Source of the DNA: Candidatus Magasanikiibacteriota bacterium
GTDB lineage: Bacteria; Patescibacteriota; Patescibacteriia; Magasanikbacterales; GWA2-37-8
Assembly: GCA_041665405.1 (NCBI GenBank)
Contig: JBAYIZ010000004.1
Location: forward strand, 3,958-67,957
DNA length: 64,000 nt
Direction of reading: 5' to 3'
A program made the translations under genes and the position numbers. The notes beneath the pieces are model-generated. The model was not told the DNA's origin and ran no database searches. It saw only the letters and a program-made list of their open reading frames with translations. Below are positions 19,410 through 60,705 of this stretch, piece after piece. Numbering within the stretch: position 1 is the first letter of the stretch; each line of letters opens with the position of its first letter.

Positions 19410-19481
19410 GGCCTGTTCGTCTAATGGTTAGGACTTTACCTTCTCAAGGTAGAAATACGGGTTCGATTCCCGTACGGGCTA
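19410..19481 (+). tRNA. tRNA-Glu (anticodon CUC)
   Basis: The cloverleaf was folded by hand. The acceptor stem GGCCTGT/ACGGGCT contains two G-U pairs. The D-arm TTCGTCTAATGGTTAGGAC is tRNA-Glu-like. The anticodon loop is TTCTCAA and the T-loop is TTCGATT. Confidence 0.75.
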
Positions 19482-19483
19482 CA

Positions 19484-19607
19484 AAAGCGGAAGAGTACTT
19501 CCGGTCCAGTCACTCTGGTTCTAACGACATCAGCTTCGGTCTACAAAAGCGGAAGAGTACTTCCGGTCCAGTCACTCTGGTTCTAACGACCTCGGCTTCG
19601 GGCTACA
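19484..19607 (+). repeat. Tandem 62-nt direct repeat (2 copies). Each copy ends with the tRNA-Glu 3' terminus (GGGCTACA / GGTCTACA).
   Basis: Copies at 19484-19545 and 19546-19607 differ at 3 positions. Each unit contains the hairpins CGGAAG-AGTA-CTTCCG and CCAG-TCACT-CTGG. The array abuts the tRNA 3' end. Confidence 0.8.
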
Positions 19608-19679
19608 ACGAACTTTGCTATTAGAACCTCTGGTATATCCAGGGGTTTTTGTATATAATACCCGTTATTAAGATGTTAT

Positions 19680-20144
19680 ATGTATAAAATCGTCGCATAT
19701 GATGACACGATGAAAGATGGTGTTGTCCAATTTCTACTTTCAATATTAGAAGGAGAATTTAATCACACTGGCATTGAACGACCAGACATATATTCTATTT
19801 CAGCCACATATCAAAAAGATGGCGGTAATTTTTGGGTTGCTTTTGATCAAGATAAATTAATAGGAACCGCTGGTCTGATTAATTATGGTTCAAATAATGG
19901 ATATATAAAAAGAATGAGTGTTGATCCTAATTATCGTGGTAAGGGAATCGCTCAGAGCCTGTTAAATGTTTTATTAGATTTTGCCAAAGAATATAGTTAT
20001 AAAAAACTATATTTGGCCACTTCAGAAAATATGATAGCCGCTCAAAAATTTTATGAAAAAGAAGGGTTCAACAGAATACCAAAATTACCAAATGGTTTTC
20101 CTACATCTGGAGCCACAATTTTTTATAAATTGTCGTTAAATTAA
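19680..20144 (+). CDS. GNAT-family N-acetyltransferase
   Basis: 154 aa. It has the acetyl-CoA binding motif RGKGIAQSLL and a GNAT fold pattern. Confidence 0.75.
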   Translation: MYKIVAYDDTMKDGVVQFLLSILEGEFNHTGIERPDIYSISATYQKDGGNFWVAFDQDKLIGTAGLINYGSNNGYIKRMSVDPNYRGKGIAQSLLNVLLDFAKEYSYKKLYLATSENMIAAQKFYEKEGFNRIPKLPNGFPTSGATIFYKLSLN

Positions 20145-20155
20145 GTTTTTTCTGT

Positions 20156-20689
20156 ATGATAAAAACTCTAAGCAAAAAACTAATATATAAAAATCATTGG
20201 ATAACTGTTTGGGAAGATAAAGTAGATTTTGGTAAAAATAATAAAGGCATGTATTCGTATATGGAGCGTAATGATGCTGGCCCGATAATGATTGCCCTTA
20301 CCAAAGATAATAAAGTAGCACTATTAAAAGAATGGAGATATCCGATAAAGAAATACTCGCTAGGTTTTCCAGTTGGCGGTCGGGAAAAAAATGAGAGCTG
20401 GAGTAGTGCTGCTAAGCGTGAGTTGAAAGAAGAAACGGGTATTAGCGCGCGCAAGTGGACAAACCTTGGGAAAATATACATTGATCCTGGAGTGAGTACT
20501 CAATATTCTTATGTTTATCTGGCAGAGGATTTAATTTTTGGCGTTCAGGAGCTTGAACATTCTGAAAATCTTACAGTCAAATTTGTCTCTTTAGTTGAAT
20601 TAGAAAAACTGATTTTAAAAAGTGCAATAAAAAGTAATTGGTTATTAGCAAGCTACGCAAAATTATCTGTTTATTTAAATTCAAGATAG
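20156..20689 (+). CDS. NUDIX hydrolase
   Basis: 177 aa. The Nudix box GGREKNESWSSAAKRELKEETGI (GX5EX7REUXEEXGU) is present. Confidence 0.8.
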   Translation: MIKTLSKKLIYKNHWITVWEDKVDFGKNNKGMYSYMERNDAGPIMIALTKDNKVALLKEWRYPIKKYSLGFPVGGREKNESWSSAAKRELKEETGISARKWTNLGKIYIDPGVSTQYSYVYLAEDLIFGVQELEHSENLTVKFVSLVELEKLILKSAIKSNWLLASYAKLSVYLNSR

Positions 20690-20701
20690 TTTTGATAAAA
20701 A

Positions 20702-20730
20702 AGTTTGCCTACCGTCTCGGTAGGGTCTAC
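20702..20730 (+). repeat. Island repeat copy 1: AGTTTGCCTACCGTCTCGGTAGGGTCTAC with an upstream A-run
   Basis: Exact 29-mer with internal inverted repeat CCTACCG-TCT-CGGTAGG. It starts 12 nt after the NUDIX stop. Confidence 0.9.
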
Positions 20731-20736
20731 ACGCAC

Positions 20737-20766
20737 AATTACGCTAAAAATAGCGTAATTTTTGTT
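20737..20766 (+). terminator. Rho-independent terminator (AATTACGCTA-AAAA-TAGCGTAATT then TTTTGTT)
   Basis: Perfect 10-bp stem followed by a T-run, immediately after repeat copy 1. Confidence 0.7.
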
Positions 20767-20782
20767 ACATTTAATATGATAC

Positions 20783-20811
20783 TTGACATATATATAAAAT
20801 ATAGCTATAAT
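20783..20811 (+). promoter_or_regulatory. Consensus sigma70-type promoter TTGACA-N17-TATAAT upstream of the TA operon
   Basis: TTGACA at 20783-20788 and TATAAT at 20806-20811 with an exact 17-nt spacer. The antitoxin start lies ~34 nt downstream. Confidence 0.6.
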
Positions 20812-20844
20812 ATATACATATTAAATCAGTATAATTTACAGAAT

Positions 20845-21120
20845 ATGACCACCCAAGTAATTTTCAAAATTGATACAAAACTTAAAAATCGGGCGATGGC
20901 CAAGGCACAACACGAAGGTATCGCTTTCTCGTCAATTCTTAAATTTGCCACCAAAGCATTTGTTGATGGTGATTTGAATTTGGGTTTAATTGGAAGTGAA
21001 AAGTTCAACTCAACTGTTGGCAGGGATGTGGCAAATGCACAAAAAGATATTTCAAAAGGAAAAAATCTTTCGCCTAGTTTTTCTTCTGCCAAAGCAGCAA
21101 TTAATTTTCTTAAAAAATAA
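20845..21120 (+). CDS. RelB/DinJ-family antitoxin (type II TA)
   Basis: 91 aa from the internal Met (MTTQVIFKIDTKLKNRAMAKAQHEGIAFSSILKF). It has a DinJ-like N-terminus and immediately precedes a RelE-like ORF. The longer ORF call from 20638 runs over the repeat and terminator and is probably not translated. Confidence 0.6.
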   Translation: MTTQVIFKIDTKLKNRAMAKAQHEGIAFSSILKFATKAFVDGDLNLGLIGSEKFNSTVGRDVANAQKDISKGKNLSPSFSSAKAAINFLKK

Positions 21121-21384
21121 ATGAAACTTATGGAGGTAAGATTTCATAAAAATTTTACGAAAAAATTTAAGAAATTACCAGTTAAAATTCAGGAACAATT
21201 TTATGAACGATTAGAGTTGTTTTTTCAGAATAAGTTTGATATAACACTCAATAATCATTCGGTAGACAAAGTTTTCTCAAATTGTAATAGCATAAATATA
21301 AGTGGGGATTACAGAGCGATTTTTGAAGATCAGGATATTATAACTATATTTATTACAATTGGGACTCATTCGGATTTATATTAA
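21121..21384 (+). CDS. RelE/ParE-superfamily toxin (YafQ/RelE-like, type II TA)
   Basis: 87 aa. It reads KFKKLPVKIQEQFYERLELF ... GDYRAIFE ... ITIFITIGTHSDLY, typical of RelE/YafQ mRNA interferases. Its start overlaps the antitoxin stop. Confidence 0.7.
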   Translation: MKLMEVRFHKNFTKKFKKLPVKIQEQFYERLELFFQNKFDITLNNHSVDKVFSNCNSINISGDYRAIFEDQDIITIFITIGTHSDLY

Positions 21385-21387
21385 AAG

Positions 21388-21418
21388 AAAGTTTGCCTAC
21401 CGTCTCGGTAGGGTCTAT
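21388..21418 (+). repeat. Island repeat copy 2 (AAAGTTTGCCTACCGTCTCGGTAGGGTCTAT)
   Basis: It starts 4 nt after the toxin stop and has one terminal mismatch (C to T). Confidence 0.9.
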
Positions 21419-21437
21419 AAAAAAATTGAAAATTAAA

Positions 21438-21461
21438 ATACCTGAAAACAGGTATTTTTTT
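21438..21461 (+). terminator. Rho-independent terminator (TACCTG-AAAA-CAGGTA plus T7)
   Basis: Hairpin plus T-run 20 nt after repeat copy 2. Confidence 0.7.
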
Positions 21462-21470
21462 ATTTTATAA

Positions 21471-21499
21471 TTGACTGTATAGGGTATGGCTGTTAAAAT
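21471..21499 (+). promoter_or_regulatory. Promoter-like TTGACT-N17-TAAAAT, followed by TATAAT and a GGGAGG SD, feeding the GC-rich cassette
   Basis: The -35 and -10 boxes have 17-nt spacing. The SD GGGAGG at 21521-21526 lies 3 nt before the ATG at 21530. Confidence 0.5.
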
Positions 21500-21529
21500 A
21501 ATCCCGCCCTATAATCTCGGGAGGTCGTC

Positions 21530-22201
21530 ATGTTCAAGCACTTTTGTTTGTGCGTGTGGGCGTTCCAGATTGTCTGGGCGCAAGTCGAAATTTCACATTC
21601 AGACCGTCTGCGTCTGTGGATCAAGAGTCTGGCGCTGTACCTGTCGTTCCTCGCATTCACCGATCGCGAGCGACCGAAGGTTCAACTCAAACGAGCCATG
21701 ATCTCGGCAGTGCTCTCGGCGTTGTATGATTACGACACCGATTGGGTGCGGACGAGTGATCCGGCAAGTTCGATGTTCTACCAACAGGTGGACGTACTGC
21801 TCGCTGATCATCCAGCGCGGGAGGAATCCTCGACAACTGTCAAGAATCTCTTCCAGATGGACTGGGAGGGAAAGTTTTCGGCCGATGGTTTGGAGCGCGG
21901 CGGTGTTGCCCTTCGATCCTATAGGAAAATCATCTAAAGTCGGTGGTTGTCAAAATACACCGAGAAGGAGATTGATCACTTCGGTAGAAAATTGCAGATG
22001 GTGGATGACATGCTCGATCTCGAGAAGGACGCTGCGTCCGGAGATACGAACTGTTTTCACCTACCAGCTGCACAGACCTACCGCACTGAACTGCGGCGTT
22101 TCCTGAGGAGTGAGTTCTTCAGGGAGTTGGAGCAGAACTCCTGGGTCTACAAGTCTGTTCGCATGAGGTGCGAACGCAAACTCCAGAGAGGTGTACTGTG
22201 A
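21530..22201 (+). pseudogene. Isoprenyl-diphosphate-synthase-like (Asp-rich GxxLQMVDDMLDL motif) gene interrupted by an in-frame TAA at 21935-21937
   Basis: ~64% GC. ORFs 21530..21937 and 21947..22201 are in the same frame, separated by a single TAA. The downstream part has a trans-IPPS second-Asp-rich-motif-like GRKLQMVDDMLDLEKD...GDTNCFHLP. The whole is shorter than canonical IPPS, so the enzyme may be degenerate. Confidence 0.35.
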
Positions 22202-22992
22202 TTGCTAAGCTCATCTCGACCAGTCGGCCGATGACGGGCGTCTTCGCGGCGCTCCTTTCTGTCGCTGGATTTCGGTACTTCAACGACGCGCCGTGGATGC
22301 TCGTGTCGGCCACCGCCGTTCTCTTCTTGGGAATCACTTGGCACATCATGTCGTTCAACGATCTGATGGACAGGGTGAACGACCTGCGCAAGAACAAACG
22401 GTTCGCGTACGAAAACGAGTGGGCTCTGCGCCAGTACATCGCGGTGCTGAGTTCGGCCACGCTCACCGTCCTTGGTGCGGTCACTGTGTGGGACATGCGT
22501 GTCGGGTTCTTCTGCGCTTGTGTCTGGGCGCTCGGCGTTCTGTACTCGTTCGTGCCGCACTGGTTCGTCGTCCAGAATTTGATCGTCGCGGTGTGCTCTG
22601 GTTCGCCGGTACTCGTCGGCGTGGTCAACAGTGGGGAAGTGGATTACAGGCCGTTGCTCGTGTTTTGCGCCTTCGTCTTTATCATCTTCATTCGTGAAGT
22701 GTACAAAGACATCGAAGACCAGGACACGGACACCGGATACAAGACCACTCTTCCCATCGTGCTCGGCCACGAAGCGAGTGTGGAGGTGACTACTGGGCTG
22801 ACCTTCGGTTGGGCGGTTTGTCTGTTCCTTTACCCCGACACCTTGTTGGGTGTGATCGGGTTGGGTGGGGGTTCGGCTCTGTTGTCCATTCACCAAGAAC
22901 TCTTGTACGACCACAGGAAGTTCGCCCAAGCAAAAGCGGCTTTGGATTGGGTGATCCGAGCCGTCATCGTCAGCATCCTCATCACCCAATAG
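22198..22992 (+). CDS. UbiA-superfamily aromatic/glyceryl prenyltransferase
   Basis: GC-rich. It has the motifs FNDLMDRVNDL (NDxxDxxxD) and YKDIEDQDTDTGYKTTLP (DxxxD...TLP), with 7-8 predicted TM helices. A candidate GTG start at 22198 overlaps the upstream stop (GTGA). The ORF call gives an upstream alternative start at 22168. Confidence 0.7.
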   Translation: MIAKLISTSRPMTGVFAALLSVAGFRYFNDAPWMLVSATAVLFLGITWHIMSFNDLMDRVNDLRKNKRFAYENEWALRQYIAVLSSATLTVLGAVTVWDMRVGFFCACVWALGVLYSFVPHWFVVQNLIVAVCSGSPVLVGVVNSGEVDYRPLLVFCAFVFIIFIREVYKDIEDQDTDTGYKTTLPIVLGHEASVEVTTGLTFGWAVCLFLYPDTLLGVIGLGGGSALLSIHQELLYDHRKFAQAKAALDWVIRAVIVSILITQ

Positions 22993-23122
22993 GAGTGTTT
23001 TCGTTTCGTCCAACCACCTTGAATGCAGGTGGCATGGACGGAATTAAAAAACCGTTCGTGCTACCTGCTTTGATTCTTTATTTGGAATCAGAGCAAGGAG
23101 ATTTTTCACGAGCGGTTTTTTT

Positions 23123-23155
23123 AAAAAGTTTGCCTACCGTCTCGGTAGGGTCTAC
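23123..23155 (+). repeat. Island repeat copy 3 (AAAAAGTTTGCCTACCGTCTCGGTAGGGTCTAC)
   Basis: Exact core. It is preceded by a long-range inverted repeat AAAAACCGTTCGTG (23046) ... CACGAGCGGTTTTTTT (23107) and followed by a terminator. Confidence 0.9.
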
Positions 23156-23163
23156 TGTAAGGG

Positions 23164-23196
23164 ACTGCATCTTCAAAATGGTGCAGTTTTTGTTTT
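23164..23196 (+). terminator. Rho-independent terminator (ACTGCA ... TGCAGT plus TTTTTGTTTT)
   Basis: Hairpin plus T-run 8 nt after repeat copy 3. Confidence 0.6.
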
Positions 23197-23287
23197 GGTT
23201 AAGAGAAGAAATGGAGTTTGCCATTCGAAATTTTTGCATTAGAAATTGTAATATGATAGTATTATAGATATATAAATAATATCCAAT

Positions 23288-23866
23288 ATGGAAGATTGGC
23301 AAAAGAAATTAGAAGCAATGAGATCTGGTTTGCCAAAACAAACTGATTCTTTTGTAATAAATGATGCTTTAATTGTTCCTGCAGCTAAAAAAGAAATTGT
23401 AAGTGTAAAACCTAGCGATAGAGATAGTGTAGAAGTGGAAAAAGATGATGTCCGTACCAGAACTGATTATGATGAACAGGTTAAAAAGGAAATATTAGAA
23501 AAAGAATCATATGATAATGACCCTGATTTTTTAGAAGTAGTTATAATTTTAGGATTGAAAAAAGGCCAGAATAGATATTTTAGAATTCGAGATATTTTTT
23601 ATCATGCAACAAGAACGGATGTCGATTATGAAGTTAATAGATATCTTACATTTACTAATGAAAAGGTACTTTCAATTAAAAAAAAATTAAGAGTACAAGG
23701 ATACAAATCGGCTGCCTACAGATTTTGGTTGTCCGCACAGCCAGAAGGTATGCGATACGGAAAACAAGTAAAAGAAGAACGTTTGAGTCAGGCCGAATAT
23801 TATGCTAAACAAGCGAGAACTACTTTGCAAGAAATTATAGATGGTCACGAGCAGCGTCTTAAGTAA
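23288..23866 (+). CDS. Hypothetical protein (AT-rich cassette, charged/K-E rich)
   Basis: 192 aa. No recognisable motif. Its own promoter-like TTGCAT-N17-TAGTAT lies upstream at ~23234. Confidence 0.4.
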   Translation: MEDWQKKLEAMRSGLPKQTDSFVINDALIVPAAKKEIVSVKPSDRDSVEVEKDDVRTRTDYDEQVKKEILEKESYDNDPDFLEVVIILGLKKGQNRYFRIRDIFYHATRTDVDYEVNRYLTFTNEKVLSIKKKLRVQGYKSAAYRFWLSAQPEGMRYGKQVKEERLSQAEYYAKQARTTLQEIIDGHEQRLK

Positions 23867-23889
23867 TGATTTTTTGGGTTTAGATCAAT

Positions 23890-23918
23890 AGTTTGCCTAC
23901 TGTCTCGGTAGGGTCTAC
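23890..23918 (+). repeat. Island repeat copy 4 (AGTTTGCCTACTGTCTCGGTAGGGTCTAC)
   Basis: It starts 24 nt after the stop and has one stem mismatch (C to T, giving a G-U wobble if transcribed). Confidence 0.85.
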
Positions 23919-23975
23919 ACTGCTGTACACAGGTTCTGGGTGACCGAGAGGACTCAAATCTGTACAGAAAATAAA

Positions 23976-23999
23976 ATACCAATAAAATGGTATTTTTTC
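23976..23999 (+). terminator. Rho-independent terminator (ATACCA-ATAAAA-TGGTAT plus T6)
   Basis: Hairpin plus T-run. It is preceded by a second long hairpin (CTGTACA ... TGTACAG, 23924-23968). Confidence 0.65.
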
Positions 24000-24129
24000 T
24001 TATTTAATAAAATTATACATTTTTCACATCAGAGTATTGAATTTTTCTTAAGTACATGTTAGTTTTATCTTATTCGGTTTCTGCTGTCATGCGGCAGTAG
24101 GAGAAGACAACTCCCACAGGAGGTTCAAC

Positions 24130-25362
24130 GTGAACCGTCATCCGGTGCTGGATCTGTTTCTCAAGTATGCGGCCATCGACACCAAGTCCGGGGTGAATGA
24201 GGAGAATCACCCCAGCTCGGTCGGCCAGACGACCTTGATCGCGATGATCAAGCAGGACCTGCTCGCCAGCGGCGCTACGGAAGGCCAGTTCTTGCACTTC
24301 AAGGACGGCTCGATGTTGGTGCGCTTCGAGGGCACCGTGAACGGCAAGGCGATCTGCTATGCCGCTCACGTGGACACCAGTCCGGAAGCCGCCGGAGGTG
24401 CGACGTGCATCATCCACGAGTACGACGGTGGTGACATCGTCCTGCCCGAGGGGGATGTCGTCATCTCGGAGAAGGATCTCGCCGACAAGAAGGGCACGAT
24501 CGTGACCGCGAACGGACTGACCACGCTCGGTGCCGACGACAAAGCTGGTGTGGCCATCCTCTGCCAGATCGGATCCGACCTGGCCAACGGGACCATCGCC
24601 CACCATCCTCCCGTCGACCTGTACTTCTGCGTGGACGAGGAGATCGGACAGCTCGAGATTGGCGTCGTGCCGTCTGAGATCGTCGGTTCGTGGAGCGCTT
24701 TCATCACGCTCGACGGCGGCAATCCGCAGATGGTCGACACCAGCTGCTTCAACGGCTGGGAGACGATCGTCGAGTTCTTCGGCCAGAGCGCTCATCCTGG
24801 TGCTGACGGCGAGAACCTCAAGCCGGCCCACTACGCGATGGCGCGGCTCATCACCGAGCTGCAGGATACTTGGGTCGTCGATGCTCCCTGGATTTCCCGG
24901 GGCGATGCACCGTTCATCTACGTGTCCAGGGTGGGGGAAATGACCCCCGTTCATGCGCAAGCCGAGGTCATGCCGCGATCCTTCAATGCCGAGGACCTTC
25001 CCAAGTTCCACGAGCTGATTGTCGAGATCACCGAGAACATCGTCGCGTCGTACGGCGTCCGCTGTCAGATCAGTGGTCGTGGGTTGCTGTACGTCAACAC
25101 GGCCACGGCCATCAAGCAGCACCCTGAAGTCCTCGATCCCATCATGCACGCGATCCACGAGATCCTGCATACGACGGGCGAGAACGCCGTCCGCGGCGGC
25201 ACCGATGGTGCCATGGCGAACATGAAGTACCCCGGCCTGCCCTCTCCGAACCTCGGCGTCGGCATGTACAAGTTCCACGGCGTCCGCGAGTTCCTCGTCG
25301 TGAAGGAGATGCTCGCGATGTACGAGGTCATGAAGCTCCTCGTGCCAGCCTATGCCGACTAG
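24130..25362 (+). CDS. pepT: Peptidase T (tripeptide aminopeptidase, M20B family)
   Basis: 410 aa, ~66% GC with GC3 above 80%. Motifs HVDT, GADDKAG, DEEIGQ, GQSAHPG and FHGVRE are present. The SD AGGAGG lies 7 nt before a GTG start. The antisense ORF 24070..25278 is a GC-rich shadow. Confidence 0.8.
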   Translation: MNRHPVLDLFLKYAAIDTKSGVNEENHPSSVGQTTLIAMIKQDLLASGATEGQFLHFKDGSMLVRFEGTVNGKAICYAAHVDTSPEAAGGATCIIHEYDGGDIVLPEGDVVISEKDLADKKGTIVTANGLTTLGADDKAGVAILCQIGSDLANGTIAHHPPVDLYFCVDEEIGQLEIGVVPSEIVGSWSAFITLDGGNPQMVDTSCFNGWETIVEFFGQSAHPGADGENLKPAHYAMARLITELQDTWVVDAPWISRGDAPFIYVSRVGEMTPVHAQAEVMPRSFNAEDLPKFHELIVEITENIVASYGVRCQISGRGLLYVNTATAIKQHPEVLDPIMHAIHEILHTTGENAVRGGTDGAMANMKYPGLPSPNLGVGMYKFHGVREFLVVKEMLAMYEVMKLLVPAYAD

Positions 25363-25492
25363 TTCGTCCCGCCACAGTTCGTTTCCGCTCGCATCCCGCC
25401 AAATTGACTGGGTGCGACCACAAGTCCATCCAGTCCCCTTAATTGATAGTTTAATTCTGTCATTTAAGGGGAATGGATTTGTAAAATAATAA

Positions 25493-25530
25493 AACCACTT
25501 ATAGTAATATGAGTGGTTTTTTGTTGTTTT
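25493..25530 (+). terminator. Rho-independent terminator after pepT (ACCACTTA ... TGAGTGGT plus TTTTTTGTTGTTTT)
   Basis: Hairpin plus T-run. This cassette junction lacks the conserved 29-nt repeat. Confidence 0.6.
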
Positions 25531-25644
25531 AACTTTTAATAATAATTGACAAAAATAGTCTATAGTTGTAGTTTTAACCTAGGTTTCTTGTGTCGCAGGG
25601 TGGTCCTGCGCGAACCAGATCAAGCGCCTCAAGGAAGGTGTCCG

Positions 25645-27093
25645 ATGTTGTTGTCCCCGGTGAAGACCTACTTCCAAGACTTCGGCCAGCTGTTCAAGCT
25701 GCCGAGGGAGTTCTGGGCCATCCAGGCCTTGAACTTCGTGTATTGCGCGTTCTACTTCACGTTCGTGACGATCAGCGCGCTGCACCTGAGCCAGGATGTC
25801 GGCTTCAGCGATGAAGGTGCCGGCCTGCTCTTCGGCGTGTTCATGTTCGGCACGGCGATCATCCAGATCCTGATGGGTCCTGTCGTGGACCGTCTCGGTT
25901 TTCGGAAGACGCCGCTCGTGGCCGCCATGATCATCACCGTCGGCATGCTCGGCATCGGCTTCACGCCGCTCGTGTTCGGCGCCAACAACCTCGCTCGTGC
26001 TCTGATGGTGCTCTTCTACCTCGTGGCTATGGTCGGGAACGGTCTCATGTCCCCGGTTGTCACGGCAGGAGTGAAGAGATTCTCCAATTCCGAGACGCGC
26101 GGCGCGGGCTTCAACATGTGGTACCTGACTATGAATGTCGGAGCTATGCTGACCTTCGTCATCGACTTCATGCGTCGGCCGCTTGAGGACAAGGCCACCG
26201 CCGAACAACTCGCTGCCTTTCGTGATGGTGGGGGCAACTCCAACATCGTGTGGTACCTCGTCGGCCTGCTCGTCGTCTGCTGGCTGGTCGTGTACCTCTT
26301 CCTCAAGAAGGAGGCGCAGTTCGCCGAGTTCAACACGGCCGTGTCGCAGTCGAAGGTCGTCGCGACCAAGACCAAGCAACCGCCTTTCGGCGAGATGATC
26401 AAGGAGATCTGGGCGGACAAGGCGTTTCGCAAGGTCCTCGCCCTCCTGTTCTTCACCATCCCGGCTCACATTCCCTTCGTCGCGATCTTCGTGATCTATC
26501 CCAAGTACTACACGCGGGTGATCGCGCCGGACGTGAACCTGGGGATGTTGCAGTCGCTCAACCCGGTCATCATCGTCGTCGGCCTGCTCATGTTCGCGCC
26601 GTTGCTCAAGCGCTTCAGCGTGTACTGGGTTCTGACCGTCGGCATGTTCATCGGCGGAGCTTCCTGCCTGGTCCTCGCGATCCCTCCGCTGTGGCTCGGC
26701 AAGCTCTTCGGCATCAGCGCCATCGGTGATGTCTACCTCGCGATGGTGGGCGTGCAGATCGTGATCTTCTCGATGGGCGAATTCGTCTGGAGCCCTCAGC
26801 TCCAGGCCTACGTCGGCGCCATCGCTCCCGAAGGCAAGGAAGGCACCTACATGGGCGTGACGAGGTACCCCTACACCCTCGCCAAGTTGTTGGGCGGAGC
26901 CATCGGCGGCCTCCTCCTGGCGCACTACTGCCCTGAGGGAATCAAGCCGTTGCTCGAAGCTGGCAAGGTCGGGTACACCGACGGCCCCGAGTTCATGAAC
27001 CTGATCCTCGCCCTGTTCGCGCTCTCGAGCCCGATGTTCCTGATCCTGCTCCGGAAGAAGTACTACGTCGACACGCGCGCCGAGGCGAGCTGA
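25645..27093 (+). CDS. MFS-family transporter (12 TM helices)
   Basis: ~66% GC. The SD AAGGAAGG lies 6 nt before the ATG at 25645. There are two 6-helix halves with Gly-rich TM segments, and TTGACA at 25546 lies upstream. The ORF call's 25546 start includes the promoter. The antisense ORF 25579..27234 is a shadow. Confidence 0.7.
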   Translation: MLLSPVKTYFQDFGQLFKLPREFWAIQALNFVYCAFYFTFVTISALHLSQDVGFSDEGAGLLFGVFMFGTAIIQILMGPVVDRLGFRKTPLVAAMIITVGMLGIGFTPLVFGANNLARALMVLFYLVAMVGNGLMSPVVTAGVKRFSNSETRGAGFNMWYLTMNVGAMLTFVIDFMRRPLEDKATAEQLAAFRDGGGNSNIVWYLVGLLVVCWLVVYLFLKKEAQFAEFNTAVSQSKVVATKTKQPPFGEMIKEIWADKAFRKVLALLFFTIPAHIPFVAIFVIYPKYYTRVIAPDVNLGMLQSLNPVIIVVGLLMFAPLLKRFSVYWVLTVGMFIGGASCLVLAIPPLWLGKLFGISAIGDVYLAMVGVQIVIFSMGEFVWSPQLQAYVGAIAPEGKEGTYMGVTRYPYTLAKLLGGAIGGLLLAHYCPEGIKPLLEAGKVGYTDGPEFMNLILALFALSSPMFLILLRKKYYVDTRAEAS

Positions 27094-27290
27094 CGAATAC
27101 GACTTCACCACACCCCATCTTCCGAAATACGGTGGGGAAGAGCGACGCTGACTGTCGCTCCGTCCGAAAGGATGTTCATCTTGGCCACCCGGCCAGGTGA
27201 GGAGGATTTGGTCAGAACATTCGACCACCCGCACTCACTTAAATTCAGAATTCATTTCTGGCTTTAAGCGACGGGTGGTTTTTGTTTATG

Positions 27291-27322
27291 AAAAGTTTGC
27301 CTACCGTCTCGGTAGGGTCTAC
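27291..27322 (+). repeat. Island repeat copy 5 (AAAAGTTTGCCTACCGTCTCGGTAGGGTCTAC)
   Basis: Exact core. It is preceded by a terminator-like CCACCCG ... CGGGTGG plus TTTTTGTTT (27222-27288) and followed by a second terminator. Confidence 0.9.
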
Positions 27323-27333
27323 TAGTTTAAAAA

Positions 27334-27360
27334 TTCGCTTATCGAAGCGGATTTTTTGTT
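27334..27360 (+). terminator. Rho-independent terminator (TTCGCTT-ATCG-AAGCGG plus ATTTTTTGTT)
   Basis: Hairpin plus T-run 10 nt after repeat copy 5. Confidence 0.6.
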
Positions 27361-27367
27361 ATCTATC

Positions 27368-27396
27368 TTGACAATACTACTAAATTATGTTATTTT
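27368..27396 (+). promoter_or_regulatory. Promoter-like TTGACA-N17-TATTTT with an AGGAGG SD at 27414
   Basis: Spacing is 17 nt. The SD lies 7 nt before the ATG at 27427. Confidence 0.45.
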
Positions 27397-27426
27397 AATC
27401 AGTCCGAATTTTTCAGGAGGTTCAGA

Positions 27427-27708
27427 ATGCCCAAGCATCGCGCTGGTGGCAAGTACTCAGGTTCGCACACGACCATCATCGATGCCGCCGAGGTGGTCGC
27501 AGACACTGCGGCAAAATTGAAGGAGGTGAGCAAGATTATCCTTGGGATGATAAAGGTTGCGCCTTCAAAACAGGCGCGCCTCAAGATCACGGTCGTTCCG
27601 GCCGGGTTGGAGGTGGTGGTTTACGGCAGAATCTCTCTGCAGACCATCTTCGTCTACACCAAGGACACGAAGAACGTTCAGAGCGCTATCGAGCGAGCTT
27701 TCCGCTGA
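27427..27708 (+). CDS. Small hypothetical protein (93 aa, ~58% GC)
   Basis: A good SD is present. No recognisable motif. The 3' UTR is GC-rich and has two terminator-like hairpins before repeat copy 6. Confidence 0.4.
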   Translation: MPKHRAGGKYSGSHTTIIDAAEVVADTAAKLKEVSKIILGMIKVAPSKQARLKITVVPAGLEVVVYGRISLQTIFVYTKDTKNVQSAIERAFR

Positions 27709-27858
27709 AGGCAAACTCGTGCGCAAGCAACTGACGCTACACCGCGAAGCGTCTGGCAGTGTTGCAACTCGGAATCGCGGTACTGTCAAAAGCAGCTTTG
27801 TTAAAGGCTGTTTTTGTTTTTAAATACATTCGAACTATTTTCGAATTTTTTAATTTAA

Positions 27859-27891
27859 TAAAAAGTTTGCCTACCGTCTCGGTAGGGTCTA
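27859..27891 (+). repeat. Island repeat copy 6 (AAAAAGTTTGCCTACCGTCTCGGTAGGGTCTAC)
   Basis: Exact core. It is preceded by the terminator ATTCGAA-CTATT-TTCGAAT plus T6 (27827-27852) and followed by another. Confidence 0.9.
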
Positions 27892-27902
27892 CTAATCAAA
27901 AA

Positions 27903-27930
27903 ACCAGATCTAAAATTGTCTGGTTTTTTT
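27903..27930 (+). terminator. Rho-independent terminator (ACCAGA-TCTAAAATTG-TCTGGT plus T7)
   Basis: Hairpin plus T-run 11 nt after repeat copy 6. Confidence 0.65.
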
Positions 27931-27984
27931 GTATAAAAATAAAAATGTGCTAAAATATACAGTATTATAAATTTAATATAATTT

Positions 27985-28209
27985 ATGCAACTACCAAATA
28001 ATTTAACCGAAAATACTCAAATCGCGATTTTCAAAGGAAAAGAAATTAGGAAAACTATTTATCAGGGGGAATGGTGGTTTGTTATAGTTGATGTGATAGA
28101 GGCACTTACTGATTCGGTAAATCCAAAACAGTATTTGAAGAATATGCTTAATAGAGATACTGAACTTACCAAAGGGTGGGTTCAAATTGAACGCCCCCTT
28201 GGAAATTAA
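27985..28209 (+). CDS. Short protein (74 aa) with a DinD/Bro-N-like N-terminal motif
   Basis: IAIFKGKEIRKTIYQGEWWFVIVDVIEALTDS is paralogous to the ORF at 63346..63564 and to the N-terminus of the DinD-like gene at 39831. I recognise the motif as DinD/Bro-N-like (antirepressor-type). Bro-N proper is recalled from memory only. Confidence 0.5.
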   Translation: MQLPNNLTENTQIAIFKGKEIRKTIYQGEWWFVIVDVIEALTDSVNPKQYLKNMLNRDTELTKGWVQIERPLGN

Positions 28210-28477
28210 CAGAACTGAAAATTCAAAAGGTGTAGCAAAATTAAAAAGTGATGCCAAAGCCGGTGGTGATATCGCTGGCGGAGCAAGGAAGAAATTGGAA
28301 AAACGCCTTGGCCGATCGATTGTGACAAAGAGGAATTTTATTAAATGAAATGGCCTACAAATTTAATTTGACAAACAAAAAATAGAATGTTAAGCTAAAT
28401 ACATATGATTAAATTGTTCACCAACAATAATTGCAATAATAATTCCCTTTGCGGGTGAGTTTTGTTTTTTATAAGAT

Positions 28478-28507
28478 AAAACTTCCCGCGATTGGGAAGT
28501 TTTTTTA
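28478..28507 (+). terminator. Rho-independent terminator (AACTTCCC-GCGATT-GGGAAGTT plus T7) just upstream of tRNA-Asn
   Basis: Perfect 8-bp stem plus T-run. Confidence 0.6.
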
Positions 28508-28508
28508 T

Positions 28509-28580
28509 TCCTGGGTAGTTGAGTGGTACAACGCCACGCTGTTAACGTGGATATCCTTGGTTCGAATCCAAGCCCAGGAG
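28509..28580 (+). tRNA. tRNA-Asn (anticodon GUU)
   Basis: Hand fold: acceptor TCCTGGG/CCCAGGA, U8, D-stem GTTG/CAAC with a GG loop, anticodon stem CCACG/CGTGG with loop CTGTTAA, and T-arm CTTGG-TTCGAAT-CCAAG. Confidence 0.8.
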
Positions 28581-28695
28581 CGAACAAAGTGAGCGAAAGA
28601 CAGTAGCACACTCGCGTGCGCTACGTTTGGATGAGAAGTTTATGCCCCGAGGGGTAAATCCAAGCCCAGGAGCGAACAAAGTGAGCGAAAGACAG
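28566..28695 (+). repeat. 38-nt direct repeat (ATCCAAGCCCAGGAGCGAACAAAGTGAGCGAAAGACAG) at 28566-28603 and 28658-28695. The first copy includes the last 15 nt of tRNA-Asn.
   Basis: Two identical copies 92 bp apart. This is the att-site-like duplication pattern of tRNA 3' ends. Confidence 0.8.
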
Positions 28696-28707
28696 GAGCG
28701 CACATAA

Positions 28708-34562: not shown

Positions 34563-37046
34563 ATGACTGTAGTCACTTTTTTGAGACGGGTCAGCGCAAT
34601 AACTTTCGCTGTCATGCTTGGAAGTGTTTTGTTTTTTGTACTTATTTTTGGAAAAGGAGCTGTCGCACAAACTGGCTCTGAAGAAAAACCAGAAGAATTG
34701 AATGATATAAAAAAAATCACGGTCTATGCCGGTGTTGAAGTATATTATAAAAATTCCGCTTTTGAAGTAAACGGGGCGGCGAGCGACCCCAAAACCAGTT
34801 TGTCAGATCCTTTGGATATGCGTTGGTCTCAAATTTCCGGTCCAGTGGGCGGCAAGGTGATTTTCAGTCAGGCAAAGTGTACACCATCCAATTGGATGGG
34901 TTTTTGTAAGACGACTATTTCTGCCACAAAGGACGGGGTATATAAAATTCGGTTAAAAGCTACAAATATCAAAAAAAACAGTAGTTATGATGATATTGCT
35001 TTGGTGTGGGATACAAAAGCTCCAATTTTAAAGGAAGTGAAAAAGATTCCAGTTATTGGAAACGATCCTAATCCGATAGTTACTATTAATGTCTCGGTTA
35101 TCAATTCCGTCAAACAAGTTTATAATCGTTTTGGATATATTATCTATGGTGGCGCATGCGCGGGACATGATACCTCAGCCAAACAAGGAAACAATGCGAT
35201 TGAGTTGTTGAAACTAGCTGATGGCACATATAATGATTGTACTATTCAAGTACAGGATATGGCTGGAAATTTAAGTAATATCTTAAAAATTTCTAAATTT
35301 ACCATTGATACTCAGCCACCGGCGTTGCCAGAAATGAATCAACCGGAAGACGATATTACTGATTCATCATACATAATATCAGGCACAAAAGAGGCCGGGA
35401 CTTCCGTTTGGTTGAAAAATAAGGAGATAGTGAAACACAATGATGATACAAGCTGGAAGTATAAAGTTAAATTAAATAGTGGGGAAAATAAATTTAGTAT
35501 ATTTACTGAAGATAAGGCGGATAATAATAGCCACAAGGTTGTTTTTAATGTTGAAAAGCAAAAACCGGTTTGTACCGCGTGGGCATATGGTACATGGGGA
35601 AAGTGTGACGATAATCAACAAATACGAAAAATAGTTTCGGCTTCGCCGTGGAAATGTGCTGGTGGTAAACCGGTGGTGTCTAAAGATTGTAAGGCAGAAA
35701 AAAATAAACCATTGTGTGAATCGTATAATTATTCGGTGTGGAGTAAGTGTATAAACAATAAGCAGGTTAGGACTATTGAATCAACATTGCCGGATAATTG
35801 CCGTGGTGGTGAGTCGCCGGTATTGAGTCAAACATGTGGTAAAGATGTTTGTGACTCCGTCAATTACACTACATGGAGTAATTGTGATAAAACAACTGGT
35901 AAAAAAATACGTAAGGTAGAATCAACCGTGCCAGCGGTTTGTGTTGTGGAAAATCCGGTGTTGAGTACGGATTGTAACGGTTGTGAATCGTACAATTATT
36001 CAATATGGAATATTTGCGCGAATAATTTGCAAACTAGAGCTATTGAATCGACTTTTCCTGCTGATTGTAGTGGTGGTGTTAAACCAGTGTTAAGTCAGGT
36101 GTGTGGTAAGTCAACATGCGATTTTGTCTATTACACCACTTGGAGCGCTTGTGACAAAGCTACCGGCAAACGAACGCGTCAGATTGAATCAACATCACCA
36201 AAAACTTGTGTTCCGGAAAACCCAGAATTATCTAAGGATTGTAATGCCTGTGAATCATACAATTATTCTATGTGGAGCACTTGTGTAAACAATACGCAAA
36301 CGAGAACTGTTGAATCAACATTTCCGTCTGATTGTAGCGGCGGTGTTCAACCAATAAAAAGTCGTGAATGTGGTAAAACCGCTTGCGATTTTACATATTA
36401 CACTACTTGGAGTGCCTGTGATAAAGCCACTGGTCAAAGAACGCGACAAGTAGAGTCAACTGTGCCAACAGTTTGTGTTGTGGAAAATCCTTGGTTAACA
36501 AAGGATTGTAATGCTTGTGAGTCATACAATTATTCTATGTGGAGCGCTTGTGTGAATAATACGCAGAGCCGAACTATTGAATCCACTTTTCCTTCTGATT
36601 GTAGTGGTGGTGCTCAACCATTATTGAGCAGGGAGTGTGGCAAGGAATTCTGTGATTATGTTTATTACACAACATGGAGTAAGTGCGATAAAAATACTGG
36701 TCAAAGAACACGGGCGGTAGAATCAACTTCACCAGCGGTTTGTGTTCCGGAAAATCCTTGGCTGACAAAAGATTGTGATCTATGTGAGTCATATAACTAT
36801 TCGGCATGGAGTGAGTGCGATGGGAGTGGGGTACAACATCGTACTATGGAATCAACATTTCCTGAAGATTGTTATGGAGGAGCCTCACAAACATACACAC
36901 GTACATGTCCGCCTTGTGACTCATGGATATATTCCTCATGGGGCACTTGCGCGAACGGTCAACAGACCAGAACTGTAATGCCAGGGACGGCTCTACCTCT
37001 TAATTGTTGGGGTGGTTCACCGTTGCTTTCACAGTCGTGCTTTTGA
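34563..37046 (+). CDS. Large exported Cys-rich protein with ~10 tandem thrombospondin-type-1-like (WSxC...RTR) repeats
   Basis: 827 aa. It has an N-terminal signal/TM segment. From aa ~330 there are alternating ~45-aa units: CESYNYSxWSxCxNNxQTRTIESTFPxDCSGGxxPxLSxxCGK and CDxVYYTTWSxCDKATGxRTRQVESTxPxVCVxENPxLxKDCNxC. Confidence 0.55.
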   Translation: MTVVTFLRRVSAITFAVMLGSVLFFVLIFGKGAVAQTGSEEKPEELNDIKKITVYAGVEVYYKNSAFEVNGAASDPKTSLSDPLDMRWSQISGPVGGKVIFSQAKCTPSNWMGFCKTTISATKDGVYKIRLKATNIKKNSSYDDIALVWDTKAPILKEVKKIPVIGNDPNPIVTINVSVINSVKQVYNRFGYIIYGGACAGHDTSAKQGNNAIELLKLADGTYNDCTIQVQDMAGNLSNILKISKFTIDTQPPALPEMNQPEDDITDSSYIISGTKEAGTSVWLKNKEIVKHNDDTSWKYKVKLNSGENKFSIFTEDKADNNSHKVVFNVEKQKPVCTAWAYGTWGKCDDNQQIRKIVSASPWKCAGGKPVVSKDCKAEKNKPLCESYNYSVWSKCINNKQVRTIESTLPDNCRGGESPVLSQTCGKDVCDSVNYTTWSNCDKTTGKKIRKVESTVPAVCVVENPVLSTDCNGCESYNYSIWNICANNLQTRAIESTFPADCSGGVKPVLSQVCGKSTCDFVYYTTWSACDKATGKRTRQIESTSPKTCVPENPELSKDCNACESYNYSMWSTCVNNTQTRTVESTFPSDCSGGVQPIKSRECGKTACDFTYYTTWSACDKATGQRTRQVESTVPTVCVVENPWLTKDCNACESYNYSMWSACVNNTQSRTIESTFPSDCSGGAQPLLSRECGKEFCDYVYYTTWSKCDKNTGQRTRAVESTSPAVCVPENPWLTKDCDLCESYNYSAWSECDGSGVQHRTMESTFPEDCYGGASQTYTRTCPPCDSWIYSSWGTCANGQQTRTVMPGTALPLNCWGGSPLLSQSCF

Positions 37047-39830: not shown

Positions 39831-40679
39831 ATGGAAAAAAATATAATAACTCATTTACATAAAACTTTTGAAGATTGTGTTCACATAGAAGATGATATTG
39901 AATTTTGGTTAGCAAGGGAATTACAGGTTTTGCTTGGGTATGAGAGGTGGGAGAATTTTGAAAATGCCATAAAAAGGGCAAAAATTGCTTGTACAAATGC
40001 TAAAAATGATGTTTTGGACCATTTTCGTGGCGTCACGAAAATGGTTGATGTTGGTTCTAGAACGACTCGTGAGATAGAGGATATAAAACTCACCCGTTAC
40101 GCGTGCTATCTTATCGCTCAAAATGGCGACCCACGCAAGGATGAAATCGCTTTTGCTATGACATATTTCGCGGTTCAGACCCGTAAACAAGAAATTATAG
40201 AACAGCGATTGGCTCAGTGGGATCGTTTACATGCGCGAGAAAAACTTTCCATATCCGAAAAAGGGCTTTCAGGTATATTATTTGAGCGAGGTGTTGATAA
40301 TGTAGGTTTTGCACGAATTCGCAGTAAGGGCGACGCGGCGTTATTTGGCGGGTATACCACAAGCGAAATGAAAAATAAATTAAGAGTTCCAGTTAGCCGT
40401 CCACTTGCGGATTTTTTGCCAAGTGTAACTATAAAAGCTAAAGATTTGGCGACTGAAATAACCAGCCATAATGTTAAAAAAGATCAATCGCTTAATGGCG
40501 AGCCGATAATCACCGACGAACATATAAAAAATAATCAAAATATGCGTGATATGTTGGTCAAGAGTGGTATCTATCCGGAGTCATTGCCACCGGAGGAAGA
40601 TGTTAAAAAAATGGAACGAAAAATCAAATCCGCGGATAAAAAATTGGTAAAAAATGTTAAGAAGTTAATAAGGGAATAA
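39831..40679 (+). CDS. DinD-like protein (DNA-damage-inducible protein D family)
   Basis: 282 aa. The N-terminal ~110 aa (FEDCVHIEDDIEFWLARELQVLLGYERWENFENAIKRAKIACTNAKNDVLDHFRGVTKMVDVGSRTTREIEDIKLTRYACYLIAQNG) closely follows E. coli DinD as I recall it. Confidence 0.6.
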   Translation: MEKNIITHLHKTFEDCVHIEDDIEFWLARELQVLLGYERWENFENAIKRAKIACTNAKNDVLDHFRGVTKMVDVGSRTTREIEDIKLTRYACYLIAQNGDPRKDEIAFAMTYFAVQTRKQEIIEQRLAQWDRLHAREKLSISEKGLSGILFERGVDNVGFARIRSKGDAALFGGYTTSEMKNKLRVPVSRPLADFLPSVTIKAKDLATEITSHNVKKDQSLNGEPIITDEHIKNNQNMRDMLVKSGIYPESLPPEEDVKKMERKIKSADKKLVKNVKKLIRE

Positions 40680-60629: not shown

Positions 60630-60705
60630 ATTGACAAATATATTTATTTATCATAGGCTTTCAACAATGAGACTTCGCGGATCTTCCGCAAGGAAGGAGG
60701 CACTC

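Follow-up and report, generated by a model that had tools for sequence, protein, structure and literature searches.

The window, a stretch of 64,000 nucleotides, contains a strain-specific island (positions 19608–28508, + strand) bounded by tRNA-Glu (19410–19482) and tRNA-Asn (28509–28581). Synteny with four relatives ends exactly at the start of the island, at tRNA-Glu, and both tRNA genes carry duplicated 3′-end segments. The island consists of eight self-contained transcription units, each made up of one or two genes between a sigma-70-like promoter and an intrinsic terminator. Units 1–4 encode GNAT and Nudix proteins, an antitoxin and a ParE/YafQ-like toxin, a terpene-synthase-like protein and UbiA, and an ORFan; units 5–8 encode an M20 peptidase, an MFS/POT protein, a DUF2103 protein and a Bro-N fragment. 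Successive intervals have 29, 52, 32, 57 and 46% GC. Strong + strand terminators number at least 11 in 7.8 kb of the island, compared with about 3–4 in 20 kb of flank. The promoter-like site of the toxin–antitoxin unit (20783–20811) matches the consensus at 12 of 12 positions, and analogous + strand sites lie at 21471–21499, 23234–23262, 24037–24065, 25546–25574 and 27368–27396; those starting at 20783, 21471 and 27368 came from a consensus scan and those at 23234, 24037 and 25546 were read by eye. Domain searches detected no recombinase, Phage_integrase or Y1_Tnp/RAYT gene on the 75-kb contig. The island occupies a chromosomal position near a GC-skew minimum.

A 29-nucleotide repeat at unit ends

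We found a 29-base hairpin-forming repeat, AGTTTGCCTACCGTCTCGGTAGGGTCTAC, in six copies, all on the + strand, with none expected by chance. Genes on either side of every copy are co-directional, and the order at each element-bearing unit end is element, terminator and then the promoter of the next unit. Three copies closely follow a gene, with no hairpin in the gap: J1 (20702–20730) lies 12 nt past the Nudix stop codon, J2 (21390–21418) 5 nt past that of the ParE/YafQ-like toxin and J4 (23890–23918) 23 nt past that of the 192-aa ORFan. The others, J3 (23127–23155), J5 (27294–27322) and J6 (27864–27892), lie 134, 200 and 155 nt from the stop codon, after the GC-rich UbiA unit, the GC-rich MFS/POT unit and the DUF2103 unit, respectively, and in each case behind that unit's own terminator (possibly more than one at J6). 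Neighbouring copies are 570–3404 nt apart, and all are singletons in one orientation.

Four copies are identical at 29/29 positions. Conservation has sharp edges at about 29–31 nt, and the flanks are unrelated between copies. Read on the minus strand, the element comprises an unpaired GTAG tag, the dinucleotide AC, a perfect 7-bp stem (CCTACCG and CGGTAGG) around a 3-nt loop (AGA), and a conserved tail (CAAACT), so that the minus-strand end of the conserved block is CT. As RNA, the hairpin folds at −10.6 kcal/mol. In J2 the last base is changed (C29T), which turns the minus-strand tag into ATAG. The only stem substitution, C12T in J4, gives a G·U pair that retains 7/7 pairs solely in + strand RNA (−8.4 kcal/mol); the DNA form and the minus strand both lose the apical pairs. 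Identity across the loop and unpaired flanks is 100%, and six copies this similar offer no covariation to analyse.

The element occurs at six of the eight island unit ends and at 0 of about 55 other gene ends (71 kb of contig), an enrichment with p of about 4 × 10−7 in a rough Fisher test; the six copies fall within 7.2 kb, and the 64 kb of flank have none. Across the collections searched, the sequence turned up in no other organism; its only further occurrences were in contigs of the same strain in two other datasets. Unit order is identical in the contigs from all three datasets, and no alternative junctions were seen. CRISPR arrays combine repeats with short unique spacers of similar length and nearby cas genes; we rejected this assignment, as the copies here are 570–3404 nt apart with genes between them, there was no Rfam CRISPR-DR match at E ≤ 10 and no cas domains were found.

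Terminators on either side of the repeat

Intrinsic (Rho-independent) terminators have a G+C-containing stem, a short loop and then a T-run, and a consensus scan combined with folds predicts that the hairpins flanking the element are of this kind. The sequence-only reading had placed a hairpin with a T-run downstream of the element, and all six junctions do have one (−11.2 to −14.9 kcal/mol, z = −3.2 to −4.7). At five of them it begins 4–16 nt past the element (all + strand): 6 nt after J1 (20737–20764), 16 nt after J2 (21435–21461, bidirectional), 4 nt after J3 (23160–23196), 6 nt after J5 (27329–27358) and 5 nt after J6 (27898–27931). At J4, in the region 23923–23998, a hairpin lacking a T-run (23923–23967) comes first and the terminator (23973–23998) lies at 54 nt. 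Comparison of the junctions also agreed with the earlier observation that the downstream terminators are all different. These variable hairpins have every feature of plain intrinsic terminators and are often bidirectional.

Folding likewise bore out a hairpin with a T-run upstream of the element at 23.1, 27.3 and 27.86 kb (all + strand). The UbiA unit ends, upstream of J3, in a compound bidirectional terminator (23046–23122; −38.5 kcal/mol, z = −8.0) built from an outer stem and an inner AT-rich hairpin, and the MFS unit ends, upstream of J5, in another compound terminator (27223–27284; −30.9 kcal/mol, z = −5.8). The structures named earlier at these two places are sound, but the one named at 27.8 kb (ATTCGAA..TTCGAAT, 27828–27851) is a weak AT-rich hairpin with a T-run (−4.7 kcal/mol); the stronger terminator of the DUF2103 unit, upstream of J6 (27787–27821; −15.7 kcal/mol), had been overlooked. 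Fold prediction with free energies, which had been proposed as a check, gave z = −3.2 to −8.0 for the flanking terminator hairpins. J1, J2 and J4 were correctly described as lacking an upstream hairpin, although what had been called direct abutment on the stop codon is a gap of 12, 5 and 23 nt.

The terminator–element–terminator arrangement had been taken as insulation of the element from transcription. It occurs at exactly the three junctions with a GC-rich upstream unit (46–57% GC versus 29–33%), and half of the copies (J1, J2 and J4) are open upstream. GC-rich units without the element carry the same long compound terminators. One belongs to the M20 unit, whose compound hairpin and terminator (25421–25523, + strand) are followed directly by the MFS promoter (25546–25574) and provide a control junction; another belongs to the unit at 61162–61226. 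In another genome (L017) the M20 terminator matches at 31/33 positions, against only 66% identity for the protein; the terminator travels with its gene there, and its 3′ hairpin can also be recognized in L018. Since terminators of this kind also end GC-rich units that have no element (25.4 and 61.2 kb), and since that of M20 is conserved alongside its gene in L017, the three 'upstream' terminators are the GC-rich genes' own. The sandwich therefore arises from the stacking of autonomous units and does not insulate the element. We conclude that the stem-loops around the element are the ordinary transcription terminators of the units, with no purpose-built shield.

At J1, J2 and J4 the element lies inside the 3′ UTR, because it sits 5–23 nt past the stop codon, ahead of the sole terminator; any transcript ending at the downstream terminator of these junctions would contain it. 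The proposal of a DNA-level site thus loses its insulation argument but may still hold on other grounds. A DNA-level role would be compatible with the strain-specific, tRNA-adjacent island with 29/29 identity in four copies amid unrelated flanks, and with the hairpin-plus-GTAG layout that HUH/Y1 (RAYT) enzymes recognize on single-stranded DNA.

Candidate identities of the repeat

REPs are defined as repeats of 20–40 bp with a terminal unpaired GTAG, stems of mostly 6–9 bp and loops of 2–3 nt; G·T pairs are common, repeats located between co-directional ORFs lie near the 3′ end of the upstream one, some families are mostly singletons, and GTAG-1/-2 REPs additionally carry a dinucleotide and, at the opposite end, a conserved motif (PMC3733652). 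The RAYT enzyme requires the hairpin and a 5′ GTAG, and cuts at CT (PMC3479197). In size (29 nt), perfect 7-bp stem, 3-nt loop, tag, dinucleotide and end motif, the element resembles GTAG-tagged REPs, and by its architecture it would belong with the GTAG-1/-2 type in particular. The GTAG-AC-stem order is present on the minus strand in five of the six copies, with J2 (ATAG) the exception; only 1 of about 70 other perfect 7-bp hairpins in the window is tagged, so a chance tag has a probability of roughly 2%. The resemblance extends to the G·T/G·U-tolerant stem, to probable transcription and to an intergenic position between genes that are co-directional or convergent in REPs and co-directional here, a few nucleotides behind the upstream ORF at the AT-rich units (gaps of 5, 12 and 23 nt) and elsewhere behind a 3′ UTR and terminator. 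A REP-class repeat at unit ends is the best reading of the element, with a probability of about 0.4.

Under this reading, an enzyme whose gene lies elsewhere in the genome would have placed the copies, and would keep them uniform, by acting on DNA; the most probable candidate is a Y1/HUH transposase of the RAYT type that reads the single-stranded hairpin and GTAG. Once placed, the element would be co-transcribed, certainly at J1, J2 and J4, and its −10.6 kcal/mol hairpin just before the terminator hairpin may stabilize or define the mRNA 3′ end, a role that has been proposed for REPs. Several observations count against a REP. Most REP families are dispersed, though clustered families exist, and this element is clustered, at six of eight island unit ends compared with none of about 55 elsewhere. 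Many families form inverted dimers (BIMEs or REPINs); here there are six singletons, all in one orientation. The 75-kb contig contains no Y1_Tnp/RAYT gene, J2 departs from the GTAG tag, a fixed place right before a terminator is no stated REP property, and the element is confined, in the collections searched, to contigs of this strain and so lacks comparative support. A further difference is the host, an uncultured member of the Magasanikbacteria within the CPR (Patescibacteria).

The main rival, possible but less probable than a REP, is that the element is an att-like core site used by a site-specific tyrosine recombinase or HUH enzyme whose gene lies elsewhere. Small circles without an integrase, carrying terminator, promoter and gene or genes, would have integrated one by one at the element, every integration regenerating an identical direct repeat, much as integron cassettes, IMEX elements (at dif) and tandemly accreting islands (at an att site) do. 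In its favour are restriction of the element to an island that starts exactly where synteny stops, the direct repeats with unrelated flanks, the widely differing interval compositions, which are to be expected of independent acquisitions, the duplicated tRNA 3′ ends and an analogous case in L009, in which the M20 unit is bracketed by an 87-nt direct repeat (hairpin plus terminator). Against it stand the lack of a recombinase within 75 kb and the single unit order in three datasets. No 'empty site' was found, nor any unit in a second context, and GC-rich units are joined, and have moved from genome to genome, in the absence of the element (the M20–MFS junction, the 60.6-kb unit, L008, L017, L018, L019 and L022). 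Comparison with specific systems is similarly divided. Integron arrays and CALINs also have small co-oriented gene units split by a repeated hairpin-forming site, with cargo typical of chromosomal integrons (toxin–antitoxin pairs, GNAT and Nudix proteins, ORFans) and, as in CALINs, no integrase nearby. An integron has an intI integrase, attI and Pc beside its array (not required in a CALIN, an attC cluster lacking integrase), attC sites carry R″ (RYYYAAC) and R′ (GTTRRRY) cores around an imperfect palindrome of about 55–140 nt, and the cassettes are mostly promoterless. The likening of the variable downstream hairpins to attC fails: the RYYYAAC/GTTRRRY pair is absent from both strands at all seven junctions examined, no conservation is seen 3′ of the variable hairpin, and no integrase lies on the 75-kb contig. 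The array also differs from integrons in that the site has 29 nt and no R″/L″...L′/R′ organization, the conserved sequence lies on one side only, and every unit has its own sigma-70-like site and terminator or terminators. The 28-bp dif/pdif site has two 11-bp arms around a 6-bp centre and is palindromic only in the inner arm parts (PMC6449649). The element can be parsed as 11+7+11, which would give it this tyrosine-recombinase core geometry, palindromic only in the inner 5 nt of each arm (CCTAC/GTAGG), and in size (0.5–3.4 kb) and content the intervals resemble integron cassettes and the 0.77–3.0-kb dif modules (PMC6449649); like Acinetobacter pdif modules and IMEX elements, which use Xer recombinases, the modules of 0.7–3.4 kb carry toxin–antitoxin and transporter cargo and no recombinase of their own. 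Yet the palindrome reads equally well as 7-3-7, with a 3-nt centre too short for a tyrosine-recombinase overlap region; on the 11+7+11 parse the centre is 7 nt and not 6; the sites are all direct, unlike the inversely oriented dif sites; no resemblance to the dif core (..ATAA-N6-TTAT..) was seen by eye; and the locus is near a GC-skew minimum on the chromosome, neither plasmid-borne nor at a terminus. Genomic islands accreted in tandem at a tRNA-linked att site share the tRNA-started variable region, direct repeats at internal junctions and tRNA 3′-end duplications at both ends, but the element is not tRNA-derived, the units are far smaller than typical islands and none encodes an integrase.

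A purely RNA-level signal is unlikely. The element would then be a protein-bound hairpin that modifies termination or processing, through nut/boxB-like processive antitermination that joins units into one conditional transcript, or as a cleavage site or 3′-end handle yielding 3′-UTR-derived RNAs. Its constant place 4–16 nt before the terminator in five of six copies, its co-orientation with transcription, its presence in the 3′ UTR at J1, J2 and J4 and the J4 stem variant that pairs in + strand RNA only are in keeping with such a role, and lambda nut (boxA/boxB) and RAT-type sites are likewise short conserved hairpins just upstream of intrinsic terminators. Unlike these, the element lies at 3′ gene ends and not in leaders, has no known cognate protein and neither overlaps the terminators, all of which differ, nor forms any conserved alternative pairing with them. 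Strong terminators precede it at J3, J5 and J6, it has no Rfam match, it is absent from the other gene ends, and its invariant loop and flanks are better suited to sequence-specific DNA or protein recognition or to recent copying than to an RNA motif based on structure alone. The version in the sequence-only reading, a terminator-shielded binding site for a protein on double-stranded DNA (operator, centromere-like or recombination site), is highly improbable: the perfect 7-3-7 inverted repeat would suit a dimeric DNA-binding protein and three copies are indeed flanked by terminators, but the other three are unshielded and the upstream terminators are those of the GC-rich genes. No canonical parS site or DnaA-box cluster lies near the element. 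The −35 hexamer that follows lies 67, 67, 93, 133, 60 and 50 nt from the element centre at J1–J6, and this variability (50–133 nt) rules out fixed operator phasing.

The repeat and its flanking hairpins

The window, with a GC content of about 37%, is part of a 75-kb chromosome contig of an uncultured Candidatus Magasanikbacteria (CPR) organism (ENA ERZ27249449 k141_1534100; NCBI proteins WCV83_016xx). We found six copies of a 29-nt element, AGTTTGCCTACCGTCTCGGTAGGGTCTAC, all on the plus strand, where chance predicts none. They start at 20702 (junction J1), 21390 (J2), 23127 (J3), 23890 (J4), 27294 (J5) and 27864 (J6); four are identical and the other two each carry a one-base change. Alignment of the junctions showed sharp conservation edges at both ends of the element and unrelated flanks, the exception being 3–5 A-rich nucleotides on the left. 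The element forms a hairpin with a stem of 7 bp and a loop of 3 nt (−10.6 kcal/mol as RNA, −6.7 kcal/mol as DNA), and the stem variant at J4 keeps a full stem only as plus-strand RNA, through a G.U pair. Its minus-strand reading is GTAG-AC-CCTACCG-AGA-CGGTAGG-CAAACT.

The pattern GTTTGCCTAC-N7-GTAGGGTCTA had no match in GTDB species genomes, IMG/VR or JGI metagenome contigs, and blastn against phages and plasmids returned chance matches only (E ~1). A covariance model run over 186 kb, relatives included, recovered just the six known copies. No family in Rfam, including its CRISPR repeat families, matched even at E ≤ 10, and we rejected a CRISPR repeat or another known RNA family as the identity of the element. 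In the collections searched, the element occurs in no other organism.

The sequence-only reading had placed the element between two terminators at J3, J5 and J6. Folding of the flanks, scored against shuffled controls, detected upstream hairpins with T-runs at these three junctions, namely at J3 (23046–23122; −38.5 kcal/mol, z = −8.0), at J5 (27223–27284; −30.9 kcal/mol, z = −5.8) and, in a different form, at J6, where the hairpin originally named exists (27828–27851) but is weak (−4.7 kcal/mol) and is preceded immediately by a stronger terminator (27787–27821; −15.7 kcal/mol). A downstream hairpin with a T-run follows all six copies. At five junctions it begins 4–16 nt past the element; J4 has first a hairpin lacking a T-run and then the terminator at 23973–23998. 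No upstream hairpin was detected at J1, J2 or J4 (z = −1.35, +1.26 and +1.02, respectively), where the element starts 12, 5 and 23 nt past the stop codon. The original observation is therefore confirmed.

Terminators as a property of the transcription units

Between 19.6 and 28.5 kb, eight self-contained transcription units follow one another, encoding in order GNAT and Nudix proteins; an antitoxin and a ParE/YafQ-like toxin; a terpene-synthase-like protein and a UbiA prenyltransferase; a 192-aa ORFan; an M20 peptidase; an MFS/POT transporter; a DUF2103 protein; and a Bro-N fragment. A consensus scan and inspection placed a sigma-70-like promoter ahead of each. There are at least 11 strong plus-strand terminator-like sites in 7.8 kb of this island, compared with about 3–4 in the adjoining 20 kb, which is organized as long operons.

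The upstream terminator is present exactly at those junctions where the preceding unit is GC-rich (intervals of 52, 57 and 46% GC, against 29–33% elsewhere). Long compound terminators of the same kind also end GC-rich units that have no element, as in the M20 unit (25421–25523), after which the MFS promoter follows directly, and in a separate GC-rich unit adjoining tRNA-Ser (61162–61226). The AT-rich M20 terminator, AAAACCACTTATAGTAATATGAGTGGTTTTTTG (25491–25523), is identical at 31 of 33 nucleotides to its counterpart at 4014–4043 of L017, a related contig, whereas the M20 proteins are only 66% identical, so that conservation is far stronger in the terminator than in the gene. In another contig, L018, the hairpin preceding this terminator is recognizable as well. 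Because terminators of this kind occur on element-free GC-rich units and the M20 terminator is kept in L017, the upstream terminators are a property of the genes and not of the element. A viral scan of IMG/VR did not find the conserved M20 terminator.

At J1, J2 and J4 nothing lies between stop codon and element, so any transcript stopping at the first terminator it meets must include the element. This arrangement is the opposite of the insulation that had been proposed, and the data of the sequence-only reading give no support to its argument that the element is insulated and hence a DNA site like attC. A DNA-level role is nonetheless possible. The terminator–element–terminator arrangement is mostly ordinary, as stacked single-gene units put terminators on either side of anything at their boundary; less ordinary is that these units, in a genome of 37% GC, include genes of about 60% GC whose promoters and terminators are AT-rich.

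GC-rich transcribed segments (50–62%; 5′ UTR, coding sequence and 3′ UTR) lie at 21500–23046, 24070–25480, 25575–27284, 27400–27820 and 60660–61226. Each has an AT-rich sigma-70-like promoter in front and, at its end, a long compound terminator hairpin whose interior is AT-rich. The GC-rich stretch starts about 7–10 nt past the −10 hexamer, roughly where transcription would be expected to begin. The nearest homologues of the M20 peptidase (61–67% identity) and the MFS/POT transporter (73–82%) occur in other Magasanikbacteria or Patescibacteria contigs (L008 9945–11168, L009 989–2218, L017 2638–3864, L018 140–3280, L019 205–1656 and L022 1304–2776). They too are GC-richer than their surroundings and lie at different loci in different orders, with OPT transporters alongside in L008 and L017. 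Among the homologue matches there was no GC-rich donor lineage, and a metagenome scan returned no M20 relatives. The family seems to stay GC-rich inside AT-rich CPR genomes. In L018, about 300 nt of non-coding, GC-rich (65%) sequence at 3585–3900, with a promoter-like site in front and an AT-rich context, is probably a structured RNA gene.

REP-like and recombination-site readings

The variable downstream hairpins had been compared with the palindromic middle of integron attC sites. The RYYYAAC/GTTRRRY pair is present at none of seven junctions on either strand, nothing is conserved 3′ of the variable hairpins, and all their features are those of plain intrinsic terminators, often bidirectional. 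We detected no integrase, other recombinase or transposase domain in the window or the rest of the 75-kb contig, and a search of the literature on integrons or cassette arrays in CPR bacteria found nothing relevant.

The element does resemble GTAG-tagged repetitive extragenic palindromes (REPs), which are 20–40-bp palindromic units with a terminal unpaired GTAG, stems mostly of 6–9 bp, in which G.T pairs are common, and loops of 2–3 nt; the GTAG-1 and GTAG-2 families have a dinucleotide between tag and stem and a short conserved motif at the opposite end, and REPs between co-directional ORFs lie near the 3′ end of the upstream ORF at a variable distance from the downstream one (Di Nocera et al., PMC3733652). 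The element shares every one of these features. The tag was found on only 1 of about 70 other perfect 7-bp hairpins in the window, which puts the probability of a chance match at about 2%. RAYT transposases, the Y1/HUH enzymes of REPs, require the hairpin and a 5′ GTAG and cut single-stranded DNA at CT (PMC3479197); on the minus strand, the conserved block of the element ends in CT. Other features do not fit a REP. The copies are extremely clustered (found at 6 of the 8 unit ends in the island and at none of about 55 gene ends elsewhere; rough Fisher P ~4e-7), occur only as singletons in a single orientation and invariably stand immediately ahead of a terminator, and the 75-kb contig has no RAYT gene.

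We tentatively favour, at a probability of roughly 0.4, a repeat of the REP class, lying where autonomous accessory units end. An unlinked HUH enzyme would spread its copies at the DNA level, and these would then be transcribed as part of 3′ UTRs. CPR/Patescibacteria genomes are usually described as small, with few repeats and little mobile DNA. What is less ordinary here is a repeat of REP architecture in such a genome, present only where units meet within a single tRNA-linked island. Should it be a REP, the class and its presumed RAYT partner would extend to CPR bacteria.

The facts that suit a REP poorly suit an att-like cassette recombination site well; we rate such a site as the other leading reading, somewhat less likely than the REP. 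The element is confined to a tRNA-linked variable island as identical direct repeats with unrelated flanks, composition alternates between successive intervals, and the intervals resemble integron cassettes or modules of the Acinetobacter dif kind in size and cargo (PMC6449649). An 11+7+11 parse of the element confines the palindrome to the inner bases of the arms, the pattern of dif-type sites, but the 7-3-7 reading leaves a 3-nt centre that is too short for the overlap region of a tyrosine recombinase. An analogous arrangement exists in L009, where an 87-nt direct repeat (728–814 and 2268–2354) brackets a promoter–M20 unit inserted upstream of asnS; each repeat comprises a hairpin (CCAGCGT..ACGCTGG), a linker and a terminator (CCGCAGTG..CACTGCGG-T7), sharing the hairpin-then-terminator architecture of the window junctions with unrelated sequence. 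Against a recombination site, no recombinase lies nearby on the contig, no dataset examined has an alternative junction, and GC-rich units are joined, and have moved between genomes, without the element. It is less likely still that the element belongs to an undescribed CPR cassette-array system, in which a Y1/HUH or tyrosine recombinase from an unlinked locus would pile up small self-expressed units (terminator–promoter–gene) at a REP-like site adjoining tRNA-Glu. Integrons and dif modules would be its functional parallels, using another kind of site. Such a system might explain the movement of unusual GC-rich 'expression-ready' Magasanikbacteria genes, and, should the element prove to be a recombination site, a little-studied phylum would gain a new kind of cassette system.

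An RNA-only termination or processing signal is improbable, and a shielded duplex protein-binding site very improbable. We rejected an operator because element–promoter spacing varies, and no parS sites or DnaA boxes were found. The 192-aa ORFan of the array was considered as a candidate binding protein and set aside; it has no homologue among 5.8 billion proteins, and its single-sequence AlphaFold model is unusable (pLDDT 33).

The island locus and minor observations

Gene order is common to the window and four related Magasanikbacteria contigs from about 5.8 kb to a methyltransferase gene near 19.4 kb. L006 and L007, the two that reach that far, keep it through tRNA-Glu (19.4 kb), beyond which they diverge completely. 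The four relatives contain neither the element nor any island gene. No syntenic 'empty site' was found in them, the sequences beyond tRNA-Glu differing completely from the island and lacking Nudix or GNAT homologues. Given this loss of synteny and the absence of element and island genes, the island is strain-specific; it starts at the tRNA gene. Contigs from JGI 3300037810 and Logan SRR6484324 (99.8–100% identity, same strain) have the same unit order over six junctions, so the arrangement is not an assembly artefact. No variant arrangements were seen in these datasets, in which short contigs just break at the repeat. Among short contigs from other datasets, L003 ends at 20727 and L014 begins at 23127, in or at the element, and L002 stops at a promoter/GC-rich boundary (21498); these are probably breaks from repeat or coverage, and that in L002 could reflect strain heterogeneity.

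Both flanking tRNA genes have duplicated 3′-end segments. Behind tRNA-Glu, two tandem 62-nt units (19475–19607), absent from L006 and L007, each close with a copy of the tRNA 3′ end, CGG(G/T)CTACA. Here GGTCTACA weakly resembles the 3′ end of the element over 7–8 nt, too weak a match for a tRNA-derived att core, which we rejected. The last 17 nt of tRNA-Asn and the next 30 nt (28565–28611) are repeated 92 nt downstream (28657–28703), resembling an att-type scar. At about 16.8 kb, the cumulative GC skew reaches a minimum and gene orientation flips from minus to plus, as at an origin; the intergenic gap is only about 52 nt, without a DnaA-box cluster or a canonical parS site.

At 21530–22201, a 135-aa ORF and the next ORF in the same frame are separated by one TAA (21935–21937). 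The joined product of about 224 aa, adjoining UbiA, is terpene-synthase-like with DYDTD and DDMLD motifs, and this may be a nonsense-inactivated gene. The ENA record calls long minus-strand antisense ORFs in GC-rich units (22147–23013, 24070–25278 and 25579–27234), over which Pfam and NCBI annotation favour the plus-strand UbiA, M20 and MFS genes. What looks like a decayed gene lies past the last element (27985–28348), as an N-terminal Bro-N fragment of 74 aa and an ORF of 53 aa; it is no paralogue of the intact Bro-N protein encoded at 39831–40679. Finally, the gene for an 827-aa Big_13-domain protein contains four tandem 267-nt repeats (35715–36815) with 68–72% identity.
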